IMG/VR virus record: IMGVR_UViG_640753024_000005
Source of the DNA: a virus
Lineage: Duplodnaviria; Heunggongvirae; Uroviricota; Caudoviricetes
Reading direction: 5' to 3' (one strand)
DNA length: 12,112 bases
The translations under genes and the position numbers were made by a program. Below the pieces are notes generated by a model. That model made no database searches. It was given only the letters and a program-made list of their open reading frames with translations, and was not told the DNA's origin. Shown piece after piece: positions 1 to 12,112 of this stretch; within the stretch, counting starts at the first letter, position 1; each line of letters opens with the position of its first letter.

Positions 1-696
1 TCACTTAGGGTATGGCTGAACCCTGAATAGTTTGGTATTTAGCCGCTTCCTTGCTCGCTTGTTCAGGAATCTGATGTAGCGATACTGATTAAATTTGTGC
101 GCCACGGCACGCTCTTTATTAGCCCGTAAATACACGCCTCGTTGTCCACCCCGCTTAATCGCGTTCATCGTTATCTCGTGATACCACTCACCATCCAGCT
201 CGTAGAACGTGCTTTCATGGCTGCCAATAAAATCAAAATTCGACGCCTGATACACAACGCCTGCGCGTCCGCAGCGTTCGTCAGCAAATGACTGAACCCA
301 CTCCACTGACGGATACAGTAATCTGATAACTTTCAGCGCGTAGCTGATGGCCCGTGATTCAGAGTTGCGGGGCATGTCGTCGTGTAGCCACATGCGATTC
401 AACTCCATATAGCCCCGGTTATCCGTTTCAAGCACGACACGACGACCTGAGTTGGGGTTAAGGGCATATCCCCACTGGAGAACGCCAACCAGATCGCGTC
501 CGCTGAATACTCCCAGGTGGAGGTAAGAGTTATTCACAAAACGGCGGGAATAGTGCTTTGTCTGAATAATTGTGCGGGCCAGCCAGCAGGATATGGTTTC
601 AACGCGCAGTTCCTTTGAACCATAGCCAACAATCTGGCCTTCATACTCAATAACGCACGGTTTCGTCAGAATGCGTGATTTTTTCTCTTTTCCCAC
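1..696 (-). CDS. mom: Mom DNA-modification protein; proposed GTG start at 696-694 giving 231 aa (alternative upstream ATG at 726-724 gives the 241-aa ORF in the track)
   Basis: ORF-track protein recognised as Mu Mom from memory. It sits at the extreme right end next to com and gin, as in Mu. A GGAG (707-704) lies 7 nt upstream of the GTG. The 231-aa length matches my recollection of Mu Mom; start choice is uncertain. Confidence 0.85.
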
Positions 697-835
697 AATG
701 TTTCTCCGTGGGATGCTCGCAGGCATTCAGCATTATGATGTGACGTTTGCAACGCGGACACCTGATTTCAATGTGATCAAAGGAATCCGCCTTAAATAAC
801 AGTTTGTTGCAGTTTTTACAGCGAATTGATTTCAT
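647..835 (-). CDS. com: Com, zinc-finger translational activator of mom (62 aa)
   Basis: 62-aa ORF with a CxxC...CxxC arrangement (CKNC ... CPRC). Strong AGGAGG 4 nt upstream of the ATG. Its 3' end overlaps the mom 5' end by about 50-80 nt. Size and position match Mu com. Confidence 0.9.
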
Positions 836-946
836 CTCACCTCCTTTGCATCAATTCGCCACTATCTTAAAAAACATCGTGGGTTGAGTGTGGTTATTGG
901 GGCATAATCGATCTGTATTACCGATCGATTCAATTGATTCGATCGT
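836..946 (-). promoter_or_regulatory. mom operon promoter/regulatory region: three GATC (Dam) sites, T6 tract adjoining a TAAGAT -10-like hexamer
   Basis: GATC at 910-913, 923-926 and 941-944, spaced 13 and 18 bp, two within CGATCG palindromes. A6 run at 869-874 (T6 on the mom sense strand) abuts a TAAGAT hexamer (864-869 reverse complement). In Mu, Pmom is repressed by OxyR at unmethylated GATCs and activated by C protein. Exact -35 and C-site not resolvable by eye. Confidence 0.6.
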
Positions 947-1511
947 CGTTTTCTATATGCGTTCGTTTGGCGGGGTGTTTTTTATACAGCGTTGACAGGG
1001 CCACATCGTAGATCAATGCGACCTGCTTGCGGGGGATTCCTTGTGCTAATAAACGCCCGGCCTGCTCCCATTCCGCTTTGGTTAGTTTAGGTGGTCGCCC
1101 ACCGATACGGCCTTTATTTCTGGCAGCAGCAAGTCCAGCCATCGTTCTCTCGATGATTAGTTCTCGTTCCATCTCAGCCAGGGCACCCATAACGTGGAAG
1201 AAAAAACGCCCCATTGGAGATGACGTATCAATACTGTCAGTAAGACTGCGAAAATTAATCCCTCGCTCTCGTAATTCCCCTACGAGAGAAATCAAATGTT
1301 TCATGCTTCGCCCGAGGCGATCCAGTTTCCAGACAACCAGTGTGTCACCTTTTTGAAGACGCTTTAAAGCGCGTTTTAATCCAGGTCTGTCTGTCCTTGT
1401 TCCGCTTAATTTATCTTCAAATATTTGTTCACATCCTGCACAAACAAGAGCGTTTCGTTGCAGGTCTGTATTCTGGTCATTTGTTGATACCCTTACATAG
1501 CCAATCAGCAC
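930..1511 (-). CDS. gin: Gin serine DNA invertase (193 aa), GTG start with GGGAG Shine-Dalgarno
   Basis: Protein begins MLIGYVRVSTNDQ with the catalytic Ser of the resolvase/invertase family and has a C-terminal HTH region. It lies directly next to an invertible segment flanked by gix-like repeats. Start codon is GTG (1511-1509). Confidence 0.95.
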   Translation of the reverse strand: MLIGYVRVSTNDQNTDLQRNALVCAGCEQIFEDKLSGTRTDRPGLKRALKRLQKGDTLVVWKLDRLGRSMKHLISLVGELRERGINFRSLTDSIDTSSPMGRFFFHVMGALAEMERELIIERTMAGLAAARNKGRIGGRPPKLTKAEWEQAGRLLAQGIPRKQVALIYDVALSTLYKKHPAKRTHIENDDRIN

Positions 1512-1565
1512 TCTGGATCTCCCGTTTAAAAGCGCAAATCATGCCATGCAGGCCGGAAACAGCCA

Positions 1566-1599
1566 TTATCTAAAACCTCGGTTTACAGGAAACGGTAAA
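1566..1599. repeat. gix recombination site, right copy (34-bp inverted repeat; 26-bp core 1566-1591)
   Basis: ttatctaaaacctcggtttacaggaaacggtaaa equals the reverse complement of 4504-4537 at 33/34 positions. The core has the 12-2-12 architecture of Gin/Hin sites, with central dinucleotide at 1578-1579. Confidence 0.9.
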
Positions 1600-2530
1600 T
1601 CAGGCTTCTGGTGCGTTGCAGAAAAACCAGAATGGCGCAGATATTCCAAACAAAGATAAATTTACGCAAACAATAGGTGCTTGCCGCTCTTTTCATGGTG
1701 CTATTAGCACAGGTGCAGGAAACTGGACGACGGCACAATTGATTGAATGGCTGGATTCTCAAGGGGCATTCAATCACCCATACTGGATGTGCAAATGTTC
1801 ATGGTCATACGGCAATAATAAAATTATTACCGATACTGGCTGTGGAACTATTCATCTTGCAGGTTGCGTTATTGAGGTTATGGGTAATAAAGGAGCCATG
1901 ACCATCCGTGTAACCACCCCGAGCACTTCCAGCGGTGGCGGAATTACTAACGCTCAATTCACCTATATTAATCATGGTGATGCTTATGCTCCTGGCTGGC
2001 GACGAGACTACAACACGAAAAACCAGCAGTCTGCATTTGCTTTAGGGAAAACAGGAGGCACTGTCGGAAATGATAAAGCTGTTGGCTGGAACTGGAATAG
2101 CGGGGTCTATAACGCAAATATTGGTGGCGCAACGACATTAATCCTCCATTTCAATATGAGCGAGGGGAGTTGCCCTGCCGTACAGTTCCGTGTGAATTAT
2201 AAGAACGGCGGTATTTTTTATCGTTCAGCACGTGATGGTTATGGCTTTGAAGCTAACTGGTCAGAGTTTTACACCACAACACGCAAACCCTCTGCGGGAG
2301 ATGTTGGTGCATATACGCAGGCAGAATGTAACTCAAGGTTTATTACAGGTATTCGCCTTGGCGGTCTGTCATCTGTTCAGACATGGAATGGTCCTGGCTG
2401 GTCTGACAGGTCAGGTTATGTCGTTACAGGTTCAGTTAACGGAAACCGTGATGAATTAATTGATACAACTCAGGCAAGGCCAATTCAGTATTGCATTAAT
2501 GGAACGTGGTATAACGCGGGGAGTATTTAA
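1574..2530 (+). CDS. Sv', silent alternative variable part of tail fibre S (no start codon of its own in this orientation)
   Basis: Open frame begins right after the TAA at 1571-1573 inside gixR and runs to TAA at 2528-2530. C-terminus (NGNRDELIDTTQARPIQYCINGTWYNAGSI) is paralogous to the S C-terminus. The TTG start in the ORF track (1616) is not a real initiator. Confidence 0.7.
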   Translation, partial: NLGLQETVNQASGALQKNQNGADIPNKDKFTQTIGACRSFHGAISTGAGNWTTAQLIEWLDSQGAFNHPYWMCKCSWSYGNNKIITDTGCGTIHLAGCVIEVMGNKGAMTIRVTTPSTSSGGGITNAQFTYINHGDAYAPGWRRDYNTKNQQSAFALGKTGGTVGNDKAVGWNWNSGVYNANIGGATTLILHFNMSEGSCPAVQFRVNYKNGGIFYRSARDGYGFEANWSEFYTTTRKPSAGDVGAYTQAECNSRFITGIRLGGLSSVQTWNGPGWSDRSGYVVTGSVNGNRDELIDTTQARPIQYCINGTWYNAGSI

Positions 2531-2532
2531 TT

Positions 2533-2598
2533 ATGATGCACTTAAAAAATATTACTGCTGGCAACCCTAAAACAAAAGAGCAATACCAGCTAACGGAA
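2533..2598. repeat. Internal inverted repeat inside the G segment (U' 5' end), partner at 3557-3622
   Basis: First 66 nt of U' and U are 64/66 identical in inverted orientation. A further 23/24-nt identical block follows (about 2638-2661 versus about 3500-3522). Confidence 0.85.
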
Positions 2599-3066
2599 CG
2601 ATTTAACATCAAATGGCTTTATACAGAGGATGGGAAGAACTGGTATGAGGAACAAAAGAACTTTCAGCCTGATACGTTGAAAATGGTCTATGACCACAAC
2701 GACGTTATTATTTGTATTGAAAAGGATGTTTCAGCAATTAATCCAGAAGGCGCAAGCGTCGTTGAATTACCTGATATTACAGCAAATCGCCGGGCTGATA
2801 TTTCGGGTAAATGGATGTTCAAGGATGGCGTAGTGATAAAGCGAACTTACACCGAGGAAGAACAGAGGCAGCAGGCAGAGAATGAAAAGCAAAGCCTGTT
2901 GCAACTTGTCAGGGATAAAACCCAGTTATGGGACTCACAGCTACGGCTGGGCATCATTTCCGACGAGAATAAACAAAAATTAACAGAGTGGATGCTCTAT
3001 GCGCAGAAAGTCGAATCTACAGACACCTCCAGCCTGCCAGTAACGTTTCCAGAACAACCAGAATGA
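2533..3066 (+). CDS. U', silent alternative tail-fibre assembly protein (177 aa)
   Basis: Starts [22 protein letters not shown], identical to the N-terminus of U on the other strand. Conserved ANRRAD motif. GGGAG upstream of the ATG. Confidence 0.8.
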   Translation: MMHLKNITAGNPKTKEQYQLTERFNIKWLYTEDGKNWYEEQKNFQPDTLKMVYDHNDVIICIEKDVSAINPEGASVVELPDITANRRADISGKWMFKDGVVIKRTYTEEEQRQQAENEKQSLLQLVRDKTQLWDSQLRLGIISDENKQKLTEWMLYAQKVESTDTSSLPVTFPEQPE

Positions 3067-3094
3067 GACAAGGCCCGCTATCGGGCCTTAATTT

Positions 3095-3622
3095 TTATTC
3101 AGGCTTTTGTGGCCATTCAGGATTTGCCGTATCCACACGGCTGACCAGAACACTGTAGCGCTCCCATGCTTCCAGTCGGCTACGCTCCTCATCTGTTGCC
3201 ATGTTCAGCCTGACAGCGCGTTCCAGTGGCTGAATAACGCTTTCTGCTTCAGAAAGCAACGCGGCCTTTTGTGATTCGGCCTGTTGTTGCAGTTCCTGTT
3301 CTGTATATTCCCTCTTTACTACTTTACCATACAGAAACATCCATTTTCCGTTATTGTCTGCGCGACGATTTGCCGTAATATCAGGAACTTCAACTATGCT
3401 TAGCCCTTCAGGATTAATAGTTGAAACGTCTTTACTGACAGCAACGATGATGTTGTTCTCATCGTAAGCAATTTTTATGGTGTCTGGCTGAAAATTCTTT
3501 TGTTCCTCATACCAGTTTTTGCCATCTTCGCAAAAGAGCCATACCACGCCCGCTTTTTCAGTTAGCTGGTATTGTTCTTTTGTTTTAGGGTTGCCAGCAG
3601 TAATATTTTTTAAGTGCATCAT
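3095..3622 (-). CDS. U: U tail-fibre assembly protein (175 aa from the MMHLK start)
   Basis: Paralogue of U'. The ATG at 3622 lies 1 nt after the S stop (3624-3626). The 12 extra N-terminal residues in the track's 187-aa ORF overlap S and are not credited. Confidence 0.85.
3557..3622. repeat. Internal inverted repeat inside the G segment (U 5' end), partner at 2533-2598
   Basis: See partner entry. Confidence 0.85.
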
Positions 3623-3623
3623 C

Positions 3624-5033
3624 TTAAACACTCCCCACGTTGTACCATATTCCCCCAATCAATTTCTGAATTGGCCTTCTGGCAACAGTGTCGACAAGAT
3701 CATCCGCATTGCCGTTAATTGCGGCTGTTAAAACATAACCTGACGCATCGCCAAAGCCGTAGTCGCGCCATACGTTTTTATATTCAATGCTGCCAAGACG
3801 AATATCCCGAACGACATGATTATGCAGCCATGTGCTTAACCAGTTGTTTCCCCACACTGAACCATAAATATCGCCACTAGACGCAACTTGCGCACCACTT
3901 CCCAGCGCAAATCCCCCATCTGTTTTAAAAATGAAATCACCACCACCATCTGAACCGTTATTAATATGAACACCATCACCACCGTTATCTTTCCACAAAA
4001 ACATACGAATACTTCCGTCTTCGTTGGTGAATGTAATGTGGTGGCGGTAATTACTTTTTAATCTAAAAGCGCTGCAATTAGATTCAATATCTTTATAAAG
4101 ATGTAATCCTAACCCATCAATATGTCCGATGCGCGAACCATTTGAATAGAAGCTAATAATACCATCTCCATCTTGCCTAAATCCGGTGTCGTTATCTCCC
4201 AGAACAATGGAGTTTTCACCCAGTGCGTTATCAGTAGCACCAATAGCTAGACCTCCTTCAATTTTGGCCCCGTGGCTGACATATATAGCACCTGTTCTTA
4301 GATTTATAGCGAATGGCCTTAATGGGCCGATATCACCGTTTTCGCCTTGTCCTTCAGCCGTAGGGATGAAATGAAGGGACTCTTCTGAACGGCGGAAAAT
4401 AAGACCGAAGGCATCATTAAAAATTCGCAGCGCATTCATCGTTCCAATTTTCAGTTCTCCGGTCATTTTATCGCCGGAACGCTGAACGGCGTTACCAGCC
4501 TTGTTTACCGTTTCCTGTAAACCGAGGTTTTGGATAAACAGCGGCTTATTGGGAATATCTGCTCCGTTCCGGTCTTTTGCCAGACGGGCATTGGCATTAT
4601 CCATCGCAATTTTCACCGCTTTTGCGGTGGCTGCCAGCGTTTCACTGGGGCTGTCAGTGGCACTGGTTAGCTGAACGAGTCCTTTTTTGTTCAGGCTGGC
4701 ATCATAGATATCCAGATTTTCACGTGCTGTACGCTGTGCTGATGCCCCGGCAGTTTTAATTTCGCTGAGGTTATTTTTTATCAGCAGCGCGTTATTGCTC
4801 ATAATGGCTTTAATGGACAGTGCAAGCTGGTTTAATTTTGTTTTATCCGGTTGAATACCGGCTTCTTCCAGCGTGTTTAATAACTCCGCCTGCACAATAT
4901 TAAACCAGTCCATGCCGGGCCATGTGATAACATTATTCCCGTCACCTTCTGAAAACCAGCGAACGATAGCACTACGCTGGGCGGATACGGGCGGCATGAT
5001 GGTTACGCCGCTGTCGTTATCAATATAAAACAT
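3624..5033 (-). CDS. S: Tail fibre protein S (469 aa): constant part Sc (5033-4538), gix-encoded linker, variable part Sv (4503-3624)
   Basis: Long ORF crossing gixL in frame, with gly-rich fibre-like repeats in the variable part and a conserved C-terminal motif shared with Sv'. Its ATG overlaps the stop of the upstream gene (TAATG at 5035-5031). Confidence 0.9.
4504..4537. repeat. gix recombination site, left copy (34-bp inverted repeat; 26-bp core 4512-4537), embedded in the S reading frame
   Basis: Core ttcctgtaaaccgaggttttggataa with central GA at 4524-4525. In the S frame it encodes [12 protein letters not shown]. Confidence 0.9.
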
Positions 5034-5575
5034 TAGTTATCTCCGTCATGGTAAACAAATTTATAAATCTGATGCGCGGGTTTATATTTCTCCAGTAAAC
5101 ATTCCAGCGCACCCGATTCATAAACACGTAACGGCGTCAGAACATTATCCAGCACCGTTGCGTTGCGATAATTTTTAATACCGTAAATATTGACCTGCGT
5201 AACCCACTGGCCTTCTGTGGAATCCGTCAGCCTGACGGTAAAACCGTACTGCGCAGCCAGCCATTCATAAAAGCGCCGACTCAGATTGCCGGTCATACGC
5301 ATTTTATTCGCGGCAGCCCGCTGGCGTTCGGACAGGGTGCCGTTTTCGCTGGTACAGTCAGGCAACCCCAGAAATGATTCCCACTCCCCCAGATACCAGC
5401 GGGATGTGGACGGGAAACGCTCCCGCAGCATTTGCCGCGCATCATCCGCCGCAGCGGCAATCACGTCGCTGATGGCCTGCGCCAGCGCAGATAATTTGCT
5501 GTCGGGGCTTTTATTCCAGGCAAGCCCTGACGGCAGTAATTGCAGAAAGGCCGTCTGATAGGGTGTTACAGCCAT
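5033..5575 (-). CDS. R: Baseplate wedge protein, Mu gp48 equivalent (180 aa)
   Basis: Position immediately upstream of S and exact length match to Mu gp48. Overlaps the W stop by 10 nt. Assigned by synteny and size, not by a recognised motif. Confidence 0.75.
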   Translation of the reverse strand: MAVTPYQTAFLQLLPSGLAWNKSPDSKLSALAQAISDVIAAAADDARQMLRERFPSTSRWYLGEWESFLGLPDCTSENGTLSERQRAAANKMRMTGNLSRRFYEWLAAQYGFTVRLTDSTEGQWVTQVNIYGIKNYRNATVLDNVLTPLRVYESGALECLLEKYKPAHQIYKFVYHDGDN

Positions 5576-6648
5576 TCAATTGTCCCCGGTGTTAACAGTT
5601 CCGTATTCTCCGAACGCTGGATCTCTGTCGGGAAACGCACTTCAAAATCATCCAGACCGGTAACACCTGCCACCGCACGGATAATACGGGAGGGGGCAAG
5701 TGCGCCGCCCGGCGTCACCTCATTAAAAAACATGGTATTAATGGCGTGAGTAATAGCCTGTTTCAGTTCGGCTGTCTTCGGTGATATATAAATCCGTGGA
5801 TTTACCGGCTTTGCCTTTGCCGCAAATACCGTGACATTTACACCATCAGGCTGTCCGACAATCAGACCAGTGATCGGGTCAGTATGACCGGCGATATAAT
5901 CCGCCACGCGTTCCACGTCTGCCGGTTGTGGAAAAATATTGCTCCGGTTATCCATAACAAACGTCACCCCGACTGTGCCACCGCCTTTCCATGTCGGAAA
6001 ACACCAGGCACGGGTAACGCCGCTGACTTCACGCGCCCAGCGAACATAATCAAACTGATTACCGCCGAACGGAGGATACTGGACACGATATTCCAGCCGT
6101 GACAGCAGCTCCGCTGCACTCTCAATATCAGCCCCACCGGAAAACCCTTTTACAGTGATGGCATCGGAAACAACACAGGCAACCGGGGTGATCAACGTTA
6201 AAAGGGTATTCTCACCGGTATTTCCTGCCTCACCGGCAGCCAGTGCGGTAACGGTAATTTCCGTCGTTCCTGCACGGTCAATCACAATGGCATCAGCCAG
6301 GCTGTAAACCACACCATCAGCACGCTGCCAGCGTGTACCGGCAGGAATGGTGGTCGCTGCCGATGTGGTGACAGTCAGCGGGCCGCTGGCGGCTGTCGCC
6401 TGTTTGCGGCGCACGCCCCAGAACCGGCAGTGCTCCAGCAACTCATCTTCATCTGCTGTCGACGGGATAATCTGCCGTCCAACCCATGAAATATGCTCGT
6501 GACAACCGGCAGCAAGGCCCGCCTGAGCATAAGCAATGGCACTCAGCGTTTTTTCACGGGCCTGAGGCCAGCTACCCGGCAGGCGCTGTTCAATATTCTG
6601 TTCTGTACGGGCAATCAGCGATGATAATGTCGGTGGTGAATAAGCCAT
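5566..6648 (-). CDS. W: Baseplate protein, Mu gp47 equivalent (360 aa)
   Basis: Synteny and exact length match to Mu gp47. Directly abuts the preceding gene (6649/6648). Confidence 0.75.
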   Translation of the reverse strand: MAYSPPTLSSLIARTEQNIEQRLPGSWPQAREKTLSAIAYAQAGLAAGCHEHISWVGRQIIPSTADEDELLEHCRFWGVRRKQATAASGPLTVTTSAATTIPAGTRWQRADGVVYSLADAIVIDRAGTTEITVTALAAGEAGNTGENTLLTLITPVACVVSDAITVKGFSGGADIESAAELLSRLEYRVQYPPFGGNQFDYVRWAREVSGVTRAWCFPTWKGGGTVGVTFVMDNRSNIFPQPADVERVADYIAGHTDPITGLIVGQPDGVNVTVFAAKAKPVNPRIYISPKTAELKQAITHAINTMFFNEVTPGGALAPSRIIRAVAGVTGLDDFEVRFPTEIQRSENTELLTPGTIEWL

Positions 6649-7086
6649 TTAAACCCCGTTAAATGCTGCTTTAAACTCATAAGGAATAACGGAACCATCC
6701 GGTAATGTCAGTGCAATGTAGAGGTATAACCAGCCCTGATGTAACTGTTCCGCTCTGACGTTAATCGCACTTACCCGGCCCGCTGTTTTCAGCCATTCCA
6801 GCGCCTCTTCGGCATACCCTCTGGCGCGTTCCAGCGTATCCGGTGTGGCTTTTTCACGTGATAACAGCCACAACCGCGAACCGATGGGGCGGTCGCGGTA
6901 ACTGTCACCCCACCATCCACGGCGATCATCTGAACCATCCGGCAGCGTGTCAGAATCCAGCGCGCGCCGGTCTGTAAACAGGGAGATTGTCACATCGGTT
7001 GTCAGGCTGTCGTCGGTCAGCATGTCAATGCCATCCTGTGCAATATCGCCGCGTCCGTTCGTCCAGATAATGGCTAAATCGGTCAT
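6649..7086 (-). CDS. V: Baseplate protein, Mu gp46 equivalent (145 aa)
   Basis: Synteny and length. ATGA start/stop overlap with the upstream gene at 7086-7083. Confidence 0.75.
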   Translation of the reverse strand: MTDLAIIWTNGRGDIAQDGIDMLTDDSLTTDVTISLFTDRRALDSDTLPDGSDDRRGWWGDSYRDRPIGSRLWLLSREKATPDTLERARGYAEEALEWLKTAGRVSAINVRAEQLHQGWLYLYIALTLPDGSVIPYEFKAAFNGV

Positions 7087-7676
7087 TGCATTGGCCCCGT
7101 GGTTCCGCCGCTGTCGCCACGGTGGATATGCTTATCCGTCGATTTGCCATTGATGATGGCATCCGGGGCAGTAATATTGCTGTCGAACTGGCTTTTACCT
7201 TTAACGCCCAGACCTTTCTGGATCTCAACGTCGCCGGTAAACGTGGTTCTGGGTGTGTCAACGGTCATACTTTCATCAGCGTAAACCTCAACCGTTTTAC
7301 AGGTAATGATGCAGCGTCCGTCCTTTGTCAGCCGGATACGATGCCCCTCATGGTGGTAAATGCCTGCATCACCCGGTTCAAGATTTGTCGGGCGGTAGCG
7401 GCGGTCTTCCACCACAACGGCGATCCCCTGATCACGTTGTGCACCCACACAGGCAATCAGCGCCTCTGCGCCCGGCAGGGGAACGCTGAAATGTCCGTAA
7501 TTTTGCAGGCGCTCCACTTCATCGGATTCCTCATCATCCAGCAGACCGACCTGCAGGTTCTGAACCTTTCGCCCGTCGTTAATCACGTTAACAACAGCGC
7601 GCGCAAGCATCAGGCGCACACGACGCATCAGCGGCGTCAGCAGGCGGTTCAGGGCGGAATCATTTACTCTTTCCAC
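7083..7676 (-). CDS. Q: Baseplate central spike, Mu gp45 equivalent (197 aa)
   Basis: Synteny and length. His-rich C-terminal tip (KHIHRGDSGGTTGPMQ) fits a metal-binding spike apex. Overlaps the P stop by 13 nt. Confidence 0.75.
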   Translation of the reverse strand: MERVNDSALNRLLTPLMRRVRLMLARAVVNVINDGRKVQNLQVGLLDDEESDEVERLQNYGHFSVPLPGAEALIACVGAQRDQGIAVVVEDRRYRPTNLEPGDAGIYHHEGHRIRLTKDGRCIITCKTVEVYADESMTVDTPRTTFTGDVEIQKGLGVKGKSQFDSNITAPDAIINGKSTDKHIHRGDSGGTTGPMQ

Positions 7677-8803
7677 GGCGGCGTTTTCTCCGGGTGTCTG
7701 CGATAATAATCTTCAACCAGCGCATCAATACCGCCGTTACTGTCGCCGCCTTTCCTGTTTTTACGGTCGCTTTCAACCGGCACCAGAAAGCCTTCGCGTG
7801 GTGCAAGGCTGACGCGGGTTTTCAGCCCGTCCTGGTCATTCAGTATCAGGGTGACTTTGCTGGCCAGTAATTCCGTGGTTTTGATGGCATATTTCGAGGC
7901 ATCAATAGTGACCAGCAGGTTCGGCATCCAGAGTTGCCCGTCCTTGCGAGTCCATCCGTCAATTTCAGCCTCAAAGGTGATGGATTTTGCCAGTCTGCGG
8001 CGTTGCTCACGCAGGGCGCGGGCCTGTGCATCCTTCGCCGTAATTTTGCTGTCGGCAATGATGATCATCGGTCTGTAACGGGTCACATCACTGTCAGTGG
8101 CGGTCCCTTTCCGGGAGACGATACTTTTCGCATCAATATCATCACCCTCAGCACCGTTTGCGCGGGCATACCCCTTGACGGTGTATTCGCTGAACCGGTC
8201 GCGGAAGTCTTCCTCAAAATCCAGTGTCAGCAGATTTTCTCCGAGAACCAGCTCATCAGTGGCTGTGCTGGCAGCCCGGCTGAATACCAGCTCTCCGGCG
8301 GCATTGCTGGTCATCAGTACACCGCGTGCGCGGGAGGCACGCACCAGCGCCTCATAAACGGTTTCTGAATGGTCCAGCGTGAAGCCGGGAAAAGCTGCCG
8401 AACTTTCCTTATCGGAAAGCTCCCAGCGAACGGTAACGCCATAAGGGGTGCACAGGTCACGCGCAATCTGCTCCAGTGTGCGGTTTTTCCACTGTCCGCC
8501 ACTGTAAACGGCAGCACAGTCAATCAGGTCAGCCGTTTTGTCACGTCCGGCGACAGTGATTTTCATACTGTCAGCGGTCATCTGGCGTCGCCGTGAATCG
8601 ATATAACCGGTGCAGACAATCTGCCCCCCGATTTCGAGCGTGAACGCCTTCCCCGGTGCCAGCCCGGATAAATCCGTGCCCGGTGGCACGTTCACCCCCA
8701 GCTCAAAATATCCGGCTACGGATTCAATGGAGCGGGTGACAGAGACTGACGTCCAGCCGGTAAAAAGCCTGCCATCCGTTCGCAGCGTGACGGTATTACT
8801 CAT
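7664..8803 (-). CDS. P: Baseplate hub protein, Mu gp44 equivalent (379 aa)
   Basis: Synteny and exact length match to Mu gp44. ATG at 8803-8801 preceded by GAGGTG and overlapping the stop of the B'-remnant fusion ORF. Confidence 0.75.
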   Translation of the reverse strand: MSNTVTLRTDGRLFTGWTSVSVTRSIESVAGYFELGVNVPPGTDLSGLAPGKAFTLEIGGQIVCTGYIDSRRRQMTADSMKITVAGRDKTADLIDCAAVYSGGQWKNRTLEQIARDLCTPYGVTVRWELSDKESSAAFPGFTLDHSETVYEALVRASRARGVLMTSNAAGELVFSRAASTATDELVLGENLLTLDFEEDFRDRFSEYTVKGYARANGAEGDDIDAKSIVSRKGTATDSDVTRYRPMIIIADSKITAKDAQARALREQRRRLAKSITFEAEIDGWTRKDGQLWMPNLLVTIDASKYAIKTTELLASKVTLILNDQDGLKTRVSLAPREGFLVPVESDRKNRKGGDSNGGIDALVEDYYRRHPEKTPPWKE

Positions 8804-9146
8804 TAATCACCTCAATACTGACACCACCGGGAACAAACAACGGGTTGCCACATACAACAGCAATACTTTCAGTCAGGCTGGCAAAACGCATACTTGTCCA
8901 GATTTGTTTTACCGTCTGCGTTTCCACAAAGCGGGGCGGTTCAGGTAGTTCTGCAACTGCATGATATTTTTCCAGCCAGCGTTGCAGCATTTGTGAAACA
9001 CGCTCGTTATCCCCGTTGTACTTATCATTGATAAAACTACTGATAGTTCCGGTAGAAAGTCCGCTCTCAAGAGCAATTTGTTTAAAGGTGGTTTCTTCAT
9101 TTTCTACAAGCGTGCGCAGTCCTGCGCGAATATCGGAAATATTCAT
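8796..9146 (-). pseudogene. B: Truncated B (target-DNA activator, AAA+ ATPase): residues 1-102 retained, fused in frame to a 14-codon remnant (LFVPGGVSIEVINE) that I infer to be the 3' end of gene N
   Basis: ORF starts MNISDIRAGLRTLVENEETTFKQIALESGL, recognised as the Mu B N-terminal domain from memory. Homology stops at ...VVCGNP (8849-8841), exactly where Walker A (GNPGVGKT) should continue. The ORF ends 14 codons later, overlapping the P start. Confidence 0.85.
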
Positions 9147-9184
9147 CTGAATAACCTCGTAATTAAATTTTGTTTAAACGTTAA

Positions 9185-11173
9185 TTAAATGGCTTTTTTA
9201 CGTCTGTTCTGTTCCAGAATATCCAGCGAATGATTCAGATATTCATCACGCTCAGTTTCGTATTCATCATCACGCTCCTGATTCTTCACCCGTTCCGTAT
9301 TACCGGAAGGCCGGAAAATGCCGACAATTCGTGATTCTGGTGCTTCAGGTTCGGCTATCTGCGGCAGCAGCTCTGCCACTTCCAGTGCATCCATTTGTTT
9401 TTGTGCCTTAATCGCTGCTTTCGTCGCAGATTTCAGTTGTTTCTGGCGGCGGCGATATTCACGGCCTGCCGCAGCATCATTAAACGCAACAGGTGCCAGA
9501 CATTCCGCTTCACAGATAAACCGACCGTCCAGGGTGTAGCAATAAACCGTGCTGTGTAACTGCTGTGGATCAAATCTGACCACAACTTTTTTCACTCCGG
9601 CATTCATTAACGCCATGTTGTAATAAACGTTTTTCGCACCTTTAAGGGAGCCGCCAACTTTAAGCGCGAACTCGCCTTTACGTGAAACGTTCACCGCCTC
9701 GGCAGGCAGTAACAGCATCCGTTTTTGCTCTTCGGTAGGCTTACGCACAATCGTTCTGGCGTATTCACGCTCAAAAACGTCATCAAACGAAAGTTTGCCT
9801 CCGCACATTTCTGTTTCACGGCCTGTTCTGGCATTGAACATCGCCACACCTTCGGCAAGGGTTTTCAGAAACAGCTCTGCATCAACAGCGCGGTCGCCAT
9901 AGTTATCAGGTTTTGCCTGCGGATTTGGCCCCGTATATGCGCCAGCCAGTGCCGGATGCTTATCAACGTATTCCTCAAGCCCACCAACACCGAAAGCACG
10001 TTCAACAGGTTTTGCCTGGCCCCAGCCTTTACCGGCAACAACGCTTGTCCAGTGCATTTTCGCGCCCATCAGTAAAAACAGTCCCTTTGGATCGTCCTCT
10101 TTTACCTTAAAGCGGTAACGATTGGGCGCGCCCCCCGTCAGCCATTTATTCGCTGCACCACGGGTGTTATCAATGGTGATGTGAAAATCCTCCGGGATGC
10201 CGTAGCGTGTCACCACATCCATAAACGAGAGGCGAATTGAGTCGATGTTCTCGCTTACATCGCAGCGCCAGCCCAGAATTTTTCGGGTTTTCACATCCTG
10301 CCAGAACCATGTTTTCGGGCGGATCACATCACCGTTAAACCAGCGTACAAAGACGTTATGCAGATAACCGTCGCCGTTGATCCACTGCATGGCGTCCAGG
10401 TGTTCCACAGTTCGCTGCTGTGCCGGTATCAGATGCATCAGTGCATGTTCACCTTCACGACAGGCAACAACCATTGCCTCGTCCAGTTGCTGAATCCGGC
10501 GAAAGGCCGTGGCACGGGAGGGAATACTCCAGCCATGCTCGCGGGCTGCCAGTTCCAGACGCTCATAACATTTGCGGAAGGCGGGCTTTTCCGGTCGCAG
10601 ATAATCTGCAATCAGAAACTGCCAGGCATCCTCGTCAAATTCACTTTTGTGAACGTTGCGACGGGATGCACCACGTCCATCAACAAGCGCAGCCGCCCAG
10701 TCAGGCTTCGCAAACTTCTGTACCTGGTAATACTTGTCCCGCAAAGTGGATGCGCTGACCTGGTAATGCCCAGCAACGGTCGCAAAAGCCGTTTTTGTTG
10801 AAATCCCCTGGTTCAGCATTTCGTCTGCAGCCTGAACCGCAGGCAACCATTTTTCAGCAAGTCTGCGCTGGGAATCGCTGGCGTTATCCCATTTGCTCCA
10901 CAGTGCCTCACGATCATAATCATGGGCTTCCAGCGTGGGGCGGGCGATTTCAAAATACCCCTGACTTGTTTCAATTCTCCCTTGTTGCAACAGAATTTCA
11001 GCACGTAATGCGACAGGGAATGATTTGATATTGAATTCAAATGATACACCTTTAGTCCCTGCAACCTGCCTGAACTCCCAGCCTTCTCTTTGTGCCTTAC
11101 GTGTAATGTTAGTGGCTTGCTTTGGTAAACCTGCCAAACCGAGCAACTCTTTTGCTGTATACCATTCTTTCAT
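9185..11173 (-). CDS. A: DDE transposase A (662 aa), apparently intact
   Basis: Recognised from memory as near-identical to MuA from about residue 65 onward. Catalytic DDE contexts present ([40 protein letters not shown]). N-terminal 60-65 residues differ from MuA as recalled and resemble the c repressor N-terminus. Confidence 0.95.
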
Positions 11174-11180
11174 AGCGCAC

Positions 11181-11402
11181 CTAGTATCGAGACGGCCAAA
11201 TATCTTGCGGTGTCATTCCCAGTGCATCTGCAATGATTTTCTCCGCTTTCGGATATCTCTTATCCAAAGCATTTTTCAATGTTGAAGACGAAAGATGATT
11301 AGATCTTCCCAATTCAGCTAGTGACATATTGCGTTTTCGTAGCTCTGCAACGATGTCAGCTCTGTGCCAATCTTGGCGGTTAGTTCTTTTATTCATATGC
11401 AT
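11181..11402 (-). CDS. ner: Ner-family early regulator (73 aa; possible start at the third Met, 11396)
   Basis: Small basic HTH protein with the DWHRADI...LSSSTL...IWPSRY signature shared by phage Ner and E. coli Nlp. Sits between the operator region and A. Looks D108-type rather than Mu-type from memory. Confidence 0.85.
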
Positions 11403-11587
11403 TTCATGTAATCCTTTCAGATTCCCCCGTGAGCTACGCTATAAAGTAGCTCACGGCATATCGTGCAATGTAGTGTGGAATCACTCTCAAATCAATAGGG
11501 ATTTGAAAGGATTTGCCATGATTTCATATAACGGCATGATTTTTATATGAATTTATTTTGTCTCTATTGAAATCACTAGGATTTTAA
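11403..11587. promoter_or_regulatory. Divergent early (Pe, leftward) and repressor (Pc, rightward) promoter/operator region
   Basis: 185-bp AT-rich intergenic region between divergent ner and c. Candidate leftward elements: TTGCAC (11463-11468 rc), 17 bp, TTTATA (11440-11445 rc), or TTGATT/TACATT further upstream. Candidate rightward elements: TTGAAA (11503-11508), 18 bp, TATAAC (11527-11532). All weak matches, unverified. Confidence 0.5.
11427..11456. promoter_or_regulatory. Perfect inverted repeat, likely Ner operator: ccgtgagctac - 8 bp (gctataaa) - gtagctcacgg
   Basis: 11-bp arms at 11427-11437 and 11446-11456 are exact reverse complements with an AT-rich 8-bp spacer, 25 bp upstream of the ner start. 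Matches my recollection that D108 Ner binds 11-bp inverted repeats. Confidence 0.6.
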
Positions 11588-12112
11588 ATGATGTCTTTTG
11601 AAATCAAAGAATGGTTTAATGCGAAAGAGCTGGAAGGGATGCCTGGTGTACCAAAGTTGGCGACTAACATTACCAGGAAAGCTGTGGCGGAAGATTGGGT
11701 AAAACGTCAGCGTCACGGTGGGAAAGGTGTCGCTTATGAGTATCACATCAACAGTCTGCCAGAAGAAACACGCAGGGCCATTAAAGGTGCCTCACTTTCT
11801 GATAAACCAGTGCATACATCAATCGCCCATACAGTTGATGAGAGGCTAATTTATGCAATGAGCTTTTTAACACCAGATGAGCAGGCCGCAGCTGTGGAGA
11901 TCATTCGTGTAGCAGGGATTAAAGGACTTATGCCTACAATTGTCAGTAAAGATAAGGCATTAGAGGCATTAGGGATTACTGTGGAGCAACAGAAAACCCT
12001 GCAAACTCTTCAAGCATTACCACCGGAAAAAGTAAGAGAGATTTTGTCTCAGTATGAAGGCAAAGAACATAATTTCCCTGTAAGAGAAAACGATGTAAAG
12101 AAAGCTGTATAA
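11588..12112 (+). CDS. c: c repressor (174 aa), immunity repressor of the transposable phage
   Basis: Divergent from ner-A across the operator region. Its N-terminal region is about 50% identical to the A N-terminal domain (shared [16 protein letters not shown]), the known repressor/transposase paralogy in Mu-like phages. Confidence 0.8.
   Translation: MMSFEIKEWFNAKELEGMPGVPKLATNITRKAVAEDWVKRQRHGGKGVAYEYHINSLPEETRRAIKGASLSDKPVHTSIAHTVDERLIYAMSFLTPDEQAAAVEIIRVAGIKGLMPTIVSKDKALEALGITVEQQKTLQTLQALPPEKVREILSQYEGKEHNFPVRENDVKKAV

Follow-up and report, generated by a model that had tools for sequence, protein, structure and literature searches.

The region analysed here is very probably a G-segment inversion system of the Mu/D108 family, one that is still likely to flip and that lies within a remnant prophage unable to switch host range itself. 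The system as such is already known, i.e., as the textbook Gin/gix tail-fibre switch of Mu and D108. The stretch of DNA under study, hereafter the window (12,112 nt), is a 100% match to CP000800.1 (Escherichia coli E24377A). A preliminary description made from the sequence alone had proposed a complete Mu-type Gin/gix invertible segment, and all of its parts were found.

Components of the invertible segment

The features of the inversion system and the deletion junction of the surrounding prophage are listed in Table 1. The 34-bp repeat TTATC[T/C]AAAACCTCGGTTTACAGGAAACGGTAAA occurs exactly twice in the window, on opposite strands, with one mismatch in the gin-proximal copy and none in the Sc-proximal copy. 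No match to the repeat occurred in dinucleotide shuffles (n = 200), and the repeat search indicated that the arms could be extended to 41 nt at a complementarity of 93%. The search and the shuffles together confirm the inverted repeats as originally described, with 33 of the 34 positions identical. The 26-bp cores within the repeats (1566–1591 and 4512–4537) match the gix site of Mu, where both sites read TTATCCAAAACCTCGGTTTACAGGAA; the core on the Sc side is identical to Mu gix and the core at 1566–1591 differs from it at one base. Read on the + strand, the central dinucleotide is TC at 1578–1579 and GA at 4524–4525, so the two gix sites are inverted relative to each other, in agreement with the Hin/Gin-type core and inverted dinucleotides claimed earlier. 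The window therefore holds two inverted 26-bp sites with imperfect 12-bp half-sites around an asymmetric 2-bp core, the form expected of sites for a DNA invertase. The sole mismatch is a T at 1571, in the gin-adjacent outer half-site (T for C at position 6). This T variant is the common D108-type allele, shared by D108, MIN10, RM8082, three full-length relatives, and one P2-like prophage. It falls at a position that also differs between the gix half-sites and is distant from the crossover.

Table 1. Features of the inversion system and of the deletion junction, in window coordinates.
Feature	Position	Strand	Basis
gin, serine DNA invertase, 193 aa, GTG start	930..1511	-	Identity to Mu and D108 Gin; Pfam; PDB
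5' 200 nt of gin, where the Fis-dependent recombinational enhancer (sis) presumably lies	1312..1511	.	Comparison with Mu; PMC3378877
gin-proximal 34-bp inverted repeat	1566..1599	+	gix core 1566–1591, central TC 1578–1579
Sv', silent C-terminal tail-fibre cassette, without its own start	1600..2530	+	87% protein identity to Mu Sv'; gp37_C domain
U' of the silent cassette, a tail-fibre assembly chaperone, ATG 2533	2533..3066	+	97% identity to Mu U'; Caudo_TAP
GC-rich terminator-like hairpin between the convergent cassettes	3070..3089	.	8 pairs (6 GC), T-run on + strand
U of the in-frame cassette, a tail-fibre assembly chaperone, 175 aa, ATG 3622	3095..3622	-	82% identity to Mu U; Caudo_TAP
Sv, variable cassette now fused to Sc, non-Mu allele	3624..4503	-	Weak similarity to Mu Sv; gp37_trimer domain
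Sc-proximal 34-bp inverted repeat	4504..4537	-	gix core 4512–4537, GA 4524–4525; codes for part of S
Sc, constant N-terminal part of tail fibre S	4538..5033	-	Outside the invertible segment; identity to Mu S; PDB
B'-'N fusion ORF, 116 aa, spanning the ~24-kb deletion; junction 8841–8848 (GCAACCCG)	8796..9146	-	Switch in Mu homology

The invertase gene is likewise preserved, beginning at the same GTG start that is used in Mu. Its product shares 99.5% identity with Mu Gin, with a single substitution (T184 for A), and is identical to residues 1–193 of D108 Gin. The earlier statement that Gin is intact was borne out, given a full 193-aa ORF that departs from Mu Gin at one residue. Pfam returned Resolvase (E = 7e-50) and HTH_7 (E = 2e-17) domains, and the best PDB matches are structures of Gin itself (3uj3 and 4m6f, E = 3e-125). 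The catalytic N-terminal domain with Ser9 and the C-terminal HTH that define a small serine recombinase are both present, and Met114 is as in the wild type. The Gin enhancer is reported to have its Fis sites within the coding sequence of gin, some 550 bp upstream of where mom starts (PMC3378877). In the window, nucleotides 1–123 of gin are those of Mu and three synonymous differences are found within nucleotides 1–200 (nt 124, 129, and 153), with similar enhancer-region polymorphisms present in relatives. A scan of gin with a degenerate Fis consensus gave sites at nt 41, 78, and 101, none of them convincingly spaced. A sigma-70 consensus scan gave no gin promoter, and promoter-like sites were no commoner than in shuffles.

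In Mu, the constant part of the fibre is read into a variable cassette, and in the window S is an ORF of 469 aa (3624–5033) that reads through the Sc-proximal gix in frame and is followed by U. This ORF substantiates the earlier claim that Sc, outside G, is joined to Sv with U next. Residues 1–194 of S are 95% identical to Mu S, and residues 1–197 match PDB entries 5yvq and 8ju3 (Mu tail fibre S and S/S'). Past residue 194, similarity to Mu S is weak and patchy, at 31–41% identity over stretches of about 70 residues, and the best match of Sv among isolated phages is to Yersinia Mu-like phages (46% identity). The cassette recurs in the invertible segment of a P2-like prophage at 99.7% nucleotide identity and, at about 95–96%, in plasmid-sized records (32–134 kb) and other chromosomes. 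Judged by these matches, the in-frame Sv is not that of Mu; it is an allele common to P2-like and P1-like elements. The arrangement in the window, Sc-Sv-U, is positionally G(+) and collinear with Mu G(+), carrying this non-Mu Sv allele.

The silent cassette lies on the + strand, as first described. It had been placed head-to-head with the other cassette, but the two are convergent (tail-to-tail), with the U' stop at 3066, the U stop at 3095, and the hairpin between them; D108 is annotated with rho-independent terminators on both strands at the equivalent position. The silent cassette had also been said to have no start, which holds for Sv' but not for U', which has its own ATG. Similarly, the extent first given for the switch (1566–4537) covers the invertible part but leaves outside it gin and Sc, both of which are also required. 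A 304-aa ORF with a TTG start that has been called within Sv' (1616–2530, ‘phage tail protein’) is a mechanical call in a silent exon and is no gene. An Rfam search of the window gave no match.

When the segment was flipped in silico at the central dinucleotide, Sc was joined in frame to Sv', giving an S' protein of 486 aa. Flipping the whole of 1566–4537 instead was rejected as a model; this produced a premature TAA in S', since the outer half-site with the T variant gets moved, whereas with a flip at the central dinucleotide, the mode of the enzyme, the T variant never enters the S frame. As in the G segment of Mu, Sc is in frame via gix with either variable exon, and a chaperone gene follows each.

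Orientation in relatives and the case for continued inversion

Inversion would follow the mechanism established in the literature on Gin and Hin (PMC3575834; PMC3798978; PMC3378877). Gin dimers would bind the two inverted 26-bp gix sites, and Fis at the enhancer in the 5' part of gin would aid formation of the synaptic tetramer. Ser9 would then cut both gix sites at the central 2-bp stagger, one Gin dimer would rotate by 180 degrees, and religation would invert the interior of ~2.95 kb, so that the constant Sc exon is followed by Sv-U or by Sv'-U'.

Both orientations are represented among close relatives. The exact 486-aa S' exists as WP_072132849.1, encoded on JHTH01000034.1, from a full-length relative, which is 99.77% identical to the flipped window over 7,274 nt. 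Three full-length relatives, located at different chromosomal sites, are unflipped and 99.97% identical to the window over positions 1–8848. In RM8082, which is flipped, the T-variant half-site remains adjacent to gin, as exchange at the central dinucleotide predicts.

Evidence closer to the strain itself comes from a Logan assembly (SRR9425412). One of its contigs (L006) matches E24377A at 100% across 10,893 nt, a span that takes in the deletion junction, and stops at window position 4502. In a modelled k = 31 graph of a single isomer the unitig continues to 3593; when the gin-Sv junction of the flipped isomer is added, it ends exactly at 4502. With both flipped junctions the modelled end is at 4504, rather than the observed 4502, such that pruning of one graph branch must be assumed. 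The contig break is consistent with a minority flipped isomer. In addition, a stand-alone contig of 2,902 bp corresponds to window 1601–4502. The exact flipped S' in a 99.77% identical relative, together with an assembly break at the predicted position, makes a population of mixed orientation plausible.

A contrary reading is that the switch is a relic in which inversion no longer takes place in E24377A, with gin untranscribed or the system disabled by the gix T variant or by the enhancer polymorphisms, and with the deposited orientation fixed. The consensus scan that gave no gin promoter would fit such a state, as would the differences from Mu in one gix half-site and at three bases of the enhancer region; in SfMu, a 1-bp change in the inverted repeat was proposed by its authors as a possible block to inversion (PMC4406740). 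However, the D108-type alleles concerned, namely the T variant and the region upstream of gin, occur in relatives of both orientations, the variant position differs between half-sites in any case, far from the crossover, and the break in the Logan contig is best explained by a flipped minority. We therefore regard a fixed orientation as unlikely. All parts of the switch, in cis and in trans, are intact, so inversion of the segment, at low frequency, very probably continues in the population of E24377A. Gin is presumably active in this strain at present, and its putative enhancer functional.

A 24-kb deletion in the surrounding prophage

The element that carries the segment is 12,566 bp long. 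It is bounded by intact Mu-type ends, TGTATTGATTCAC... and ...GCGCCGCTTCA, with a 5-bp target duplication (GCCGA) on both sides, and has a c-ner-A-B early region, as expected of a Mu/D108-family prophage. Of these genes, c, ner, and A are complete, whereas B breaks off near codon 102. At window 8845–8848, homology jumps from Mu 27643 to Mu 3659, and the equivalent of Mu 3660–27642 (~24 kb) is missing. Mu B and the N gene of one full-length relative served as references for the junction sequence. An exact protein look-up found the B'-'N fusion protein only in E24377A and in one Logan assembly; this recurrence of the junction in an independent assembly indicates that it is not a misassembly. Searched as an exact 39-mer, the junction had no match in collections of genome contigs or viral contigs. 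In the E. coli genome set, E24377A was not among the matches covering >80% of the window, so the deletion would not show there. A Pfam ‘Death’ match of the fusion ORF was weak, fell below the gathering cut-off, and was ignored. On these sequence comparisons, the 12.6-kb element derives by deletion from a prophage of the D108/Mu family with D108-type immunity, and it is both recent and strain-specific.

In the annotated Mu genome, the missing interval contains Mor, the late activator C (Mu 9963–10385), the lysis genes, and PP (Mu 27287–27353), the C-dependent late promoter upstream of P-S-U. By the known order of genes in Mu, it also carries those for the head and tail shaft, in support of which the full-length relatives have sheath, tube, and tape-measure genes that are absent here. 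The gene list between the Mu ends also lacks head, lysis, Mor, and C genes. What is retained comprises c, ner, A, B', 'N, baseplate P/45/46/47/48, S, U, the G segment, gin, com, and mom. Given the loss of C, PP, and the virion genes, the element would form no virions and its S-U genes would not be driven from their normal promoter, whichever cassette is in frame. The deletion thus leaves flipping with no host-range consequence for the element alone. Two earlier claims fail on these grounds: the region was called a host-range switch, which a remnant that lacks virion genes, late activator, and late promoter does not support, and one cassette was said to be expressed, whereas PP and C lie in the missing interval. 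After derepression, however, P-S-U could still be expressed by transcription running on from the early promoter Pe.

The orphaned switch might on this basis be other than inert, though we hold this to be improbable. After the deletion, P-45-46-47-48-S-U stands directly behind Pe-ner-A-B', and derepression of Pe could yield free S or S', with Gin choosing between them. Such free S/S' might block surface receptors against other phages, as described for PinQ/StfE2, or serve a Mu- or P2-family phage that co-infects the cell. Alternatively, Gin might act in trans on other invertible segments of E24377A. Equally improbable is that a viable temperate phage switches its host range here, carrying the product of one expressed cassette on its virions while the other stays silent. 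Every part of the switch is intact and full-length relatives with the same G segment exist, for which this reading is correct; for the present element it is already refuted, unless a helper is present, by the jump in Mu homology, the lack of virion, lysis, Mor, and C genes between the Mu ends, the position of PP and C in the deleted interval, and the repetition of the junction in an independent assembly. Least probable of all is a module exapted by the host, in which Gin and/or the fibre cassettes serve it through an adsorption block, Gin acting in trans, or a Pe-driven baseplate-fibre block: the invertase and chimeric fibre gene PinQ/StfE2 of K-12 cryptic prophages inhibit T2 adsorption (PMC12529663) and the deletion sets P-S-U directly downstream of the early operon, but the deletion was found only in E24377A and one identical assembly, and the remnant is separated from its full-length relatives by 3 base differences in 8.8 kb, leaving no time for selection to show. 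With so few differences, intactness is explained by youth. We therefore favour a switch that probably still flips and that owes its intactness to the youth of the deletion rather than to any demonstrable selection.

Comparison with known systems and implications

The gene order is that of Mu (NC_000929 / AF083977), i.e., Sc, gix, Sv U / U' Sv', gix, gin com mom. The two elements also share the 34-bp inverted repeats and an identical Sc-side gix core, and their protein identities are 99.5% for Gin, 97% for U', 95% for Sc, 87% for Sv', and 82% for U. In contrast to Mu, the window has another Sv allele, T instead of C at position 6 of the gin-proximal gix, nine substitutions between gix and gin, and an immunity region that is not Mu-like; its element also lacks ~24 kb, C and PP included. 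Overall, no named phage is closer than D108 (GQ357916), which has 98.7% identity in the region from c through ner to the N-terminal part of A, shares both the sequence upstream of gin and the T-variant gix, and has the same Gin over residues 1–193. It differs in that its Gin is annotated as four residues longer, with the stop replaced by Gln, and in its Sv, with the G segment aligning at 72% query coverage and 88.8% identity. Moreover, D108 is a complete phage, whereas the element in the window is a remnant.

Parts of the segment extend to other phage groups. The Sv'-U'-U DNA is ~88% identical to the C segment of P1/P7, which is inverted by Cin, and Sv-U of the window is 99.7% identical to the silent cassette that adjoins a recombinase in a P2-like prophage (E. 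coli O111:H2 12A), with homology stopping at the outer end of gix. These P1/P7 and P2-like segments are attached to other constant fibre exons and sit in other phage backbones, and the inverted repeats of P1 are longer than those here. In the PinQ/e14 P-segment with StfE2 (Kirigo et al., 2025; PMC12529663), an invertase of the Gin/Pin/Hin group likewise flips fibre cassettes in a defective prophage. There, a phenotype of benefit to the host, i.e., a block of T2 adsorption, has been demonstrated, whereas conservation in the present case suggests none.

These findings show that an intact switch is not the same as a functional host-range switch, since the genomic context, here a 24-kb internal deletion, decides. 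The region itself is of little importance beyond annotation, where the called ‘phage tail protein’ should read silent exon. Nevertheless, having both ends, a duplicated target site, the transposase A, and an invertase that is probably live, the element is a clean natural mini-Mu that could conveniently report on Gin activity in vivo. More broadly, the relationships of its cassettes illustrate a trade in Sv-U among elements of the Mu, P1, and P2 types, in which gix marks the boundaries of exchange.

Identity and gene map of the element

Over its 12,112 bases the window is 100% identical to E. coli O139:H28 E24377A (CP000800.1), and its genes are those of a Mu-family prophage lying in reverse. 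With flanks, the element spans 12,566 bp (6696-19261 of L005, the E24377A locus comprising the window and its flanks). The Mu left end TGTATTGATTCAC opens the element and ...GCGCCGCTTCA closes it, both Mu ends being intact. A 5-bp target duplication (GCCGA) lies on both flanks, and the insertion is located where ssuA and ssuD meet in the sulfonate operon.

Genes and segments of the element in window positions
Feature	Position	Remark
mom	1-726	
com	647-835	
gin	930-1511	
G segment	1566-4537	
S	3624-5033	
Baseplate genes gp48, gp47, gp46, gp45, P	up to 8803	
Hybrid ORF (B'-'N)	8796-9146	116 aa
Transposase A	9185-11173	
ner	11181-11402	
Repressor c	11588-12112	strand opposite to other listed genes

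The immunity region (10986-12112; c, ner and the A N-terminus) is 98.7% identical to phage D108 and has no DNA-level match to Mu, which makes the element a family member that combines D108 immunity with Mu-like late genes. An 80-nt inverted repeat of 73% complementarity joins the 5' ends of A and c (11094-11173 versus 11603-11682); it was rejected as a structural element because both proteins carry an HTH_Tnp_Mu_1 domain, and the repeat reflects the known homology between the N-terminal DNA-binding domains of repressor and transposase.

Megablast against Mu aligned window 1-8848 with Mu 36602-27643 and then window 8845-10985 with Mu 3659-1519, so the equivalent of Mu 3660-27642, about 24 kb, is absent. 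In the hybrid ORF left between A and P, roughly the first 102 codons of B run into the final 14 of N, which truncates B directly ahead of its Walker A motif. The fusion junction (8841-8848) lies at GCAACCCG, possibly an 8-bp microhomology at the deletion join. The remnant is a natural "mini-Mu", with A intact and B truncated. According to the annotated Mu genome, the absent interval holds Mor, the late activator C (Mu 9963-10385), P_lys with the lysis genes, and the C-dependent late promoter P_P (Mu 27287-27353), which lies inside N and drives P through U. Genes for the sheath, tube and tape measure, present at that position in full-length relatives, are missing from the E24377A element; the known Mu gene order puts the head and tail-shaft genes in the interval as well.

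Misassembly was ruled out, since the identical junction recurs in an independent assembly (Logan, SRR9425412). The exact 116-aa fusion protein was found only in E24377A and this one identical Logan assembly, and the deletion is therefore strain-specific. It is recent as well, because the remnant differs from full-length relatives at only 3 positions in 8.8 kb.

Recombination sites and the Gin invertase

The preliminary description of a complete Gin/gix switch was upheld as regards its recombination machinery. The 34-bp repeat occurs in exactly two copies, at 1566-1599 (+ strand, one mismatch) and 4504-4537 (- strand, no mismatches), and no match was found in any of the shuffled sequences searched. 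Within the repeats, 26 bp correspond to the Mu gix site TTATCCAAAACCTCGGTTTACAGGAA, which Mu carries at both G ends. The asymmetric dinucleotide at the site centre is, on the + strand, TC at 1578-1579 but GA at 4524-4525; the two sites are therefore mutually inverted, as had been proposed. The sole mismatch, a T at 1571 in the gin-side outer half-site, does not indicate decay, since it is also carried by D108, MIN10, RM8082, three full-length relatives and a P2-like prophage. In RM8082, where G is flipped, the T variant still adjoins gin, as expected if exchange takes place at the central dinucleotide and the outer half-sites do not move. The 40-bp spacer that separates gin from gix (1523-1562) has a cluster of nine substitutions relative to Mu; since D108 and most relatives share all of them, it is Mu that deviates here. 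A sigma-70 consensus scan located no gin promoter.

Gin was likewise correctly described as intact: its 193-aa ORF starts with GTG as in Mu and contains Resolvase and HTH_7 domains, with Ser9 and the wild-type Met114 in place. T184 is the only residue that departs from Mu Gin, and residues 1-193 show no difference from D108 Gin. At the nucleotide level, gin matches Mu exactly up to nt 123 and has three differences, all synonymous, within nt 1-200; published work puts the enhancer's Fis sites inside gin (PMC3378877). Every sequence-testable defining feature of a Gin-type invertase switch is present; the enhancer in this copy of gin is putative, and inversion at the locus is probable.

Fibre cassettes and G orientation

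The deposited S protein (469 aa) is 95% identical to Mu S over residues 1-194, the rest being only patchily similar to Mu Sv, and U (175 aa from ATG 3622) shares 82% identity with Mu U. On the opposite strand, Sv' (1600-2530) and U' (2533-3066) are 87% and 97% identical to their Mu counterparts. The two cassettes are arranged tail-to-tail, not head-to-head as first described, and converge on a 28-bp spacer that contains a GC-rich hairpin at 3070-3089. At 1616-2530, gene callers predict a separate 304-aa "phage tail protein" with a TTG start; this ORF is the Sv' exon, which lacks a promoter.

No isolated phage carries a close counterpart of the in-frame Sv-U cassette; the nearest are Yersinia Mu-like phages, at 46% amino acid identity. 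At the nucleotide level, the cassette (3600-4537) is 99.7% identical to the silent one that adjoins a recombinase in a P2-like prophage of E. coli O111:H2 12A (L014 5001-5938), and it occurs at approximately 95-96% in other chromosomes and on records of plasmid size (32-134 kb). Homology with the 12A prophage stops at the outer edge of gix, which suggests that fibre cassettes are exchanged between unrelated phages at recombination sites. Horizontal trading of such cassettes among Mu, P1, P2 and e14 has long been known, and the Sv-U distribution fits it.

In-silico inversion between the central dinucleotides yields an open Sc-Sv' frame of 486 aa that ends at the Sv' stop. Flipping the whole repeat-to-repeat interval instead brings the T variant into the S frame and produces a TAA in S', an artefact of misplacing the crossover. 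Sequence records support inversion of this very segment in nature. A protein identical to the 486-aa S' is deposited as WP_072132849.1, encoded on JHTH01000034.1 by a full-length Mu-family prophage collinear with the flipped window (99.77% over 7,274 nt). Three further full-length prophages at different chromosomal sites match window 1-8848 at 99.97% (3 mismatches), unflipped. A stand-alone 2,902-bp contig corresponds to the G interior (window 1601-4502), and many draft assemblies carry the Sv' ORF on contigs of approximately 3.05 kb that match the G segment alone (L011). Two independent complete E. coli W assemblies (NC_017635.1, NC_017664.1) differ at the same coordinate in the cassette after Sc, indicating that its Mu-like prophage was captured in opposite G orientations.

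The Logan assembly of SRR9425412 contains a 10,893-nt contig, 100% identical to E24377A including the deletion junction, that ends at window 4502. In simulated k=31 de Bruijn walks from Sc, the unitig of the deposited isomer alone passed gix and continued to 3593; adding the gin-Sv junction of the flipped isomer halted it at 4502, and adding both flipped junctions at 4504. The contig end is thus where a minority flipped isomer would put it, given pruning of one low-coverage branch, which is suggestive but not proof. In Mu, Gin expression is independent of C and inversion takes place in lysogens; G flipping would for this reason still be expected at the E24377A locus.

Consequences of the deletion for the switch

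The switch belongs to a known system, and a 2007-era complete genome already includes the locus in its annotation. The sole feature of the Mu G segment that fails here is its link to a virion and to C-dependent late expression. With virion genes, P_P and C deleted, the element is incapable of building virions, and its fibre operon no longer has its promoter or its activator. The proposals that one cassette is expressed and that inversion switches host range fit the ancestor and the full-length relatives, but not the E24377A locus. Any S-U expression would need read-through from the early operon, now directly upstream. The DNA-modification genes com and mom (1-835) are intact, with 100% and 99.2% amino acid identity to Mu, respectively; their C-dependent promoter lost its activator with the deletion, so this module, too, is probably silent. 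Apart from these readings, the one non-trivial alternative is a possible host-level role of the remnant, which the youth and strain restriction of the deletion do not support and for which PinQ/StfE2 in K-12 cryptic prophages provide a precedent (PMC12529663).
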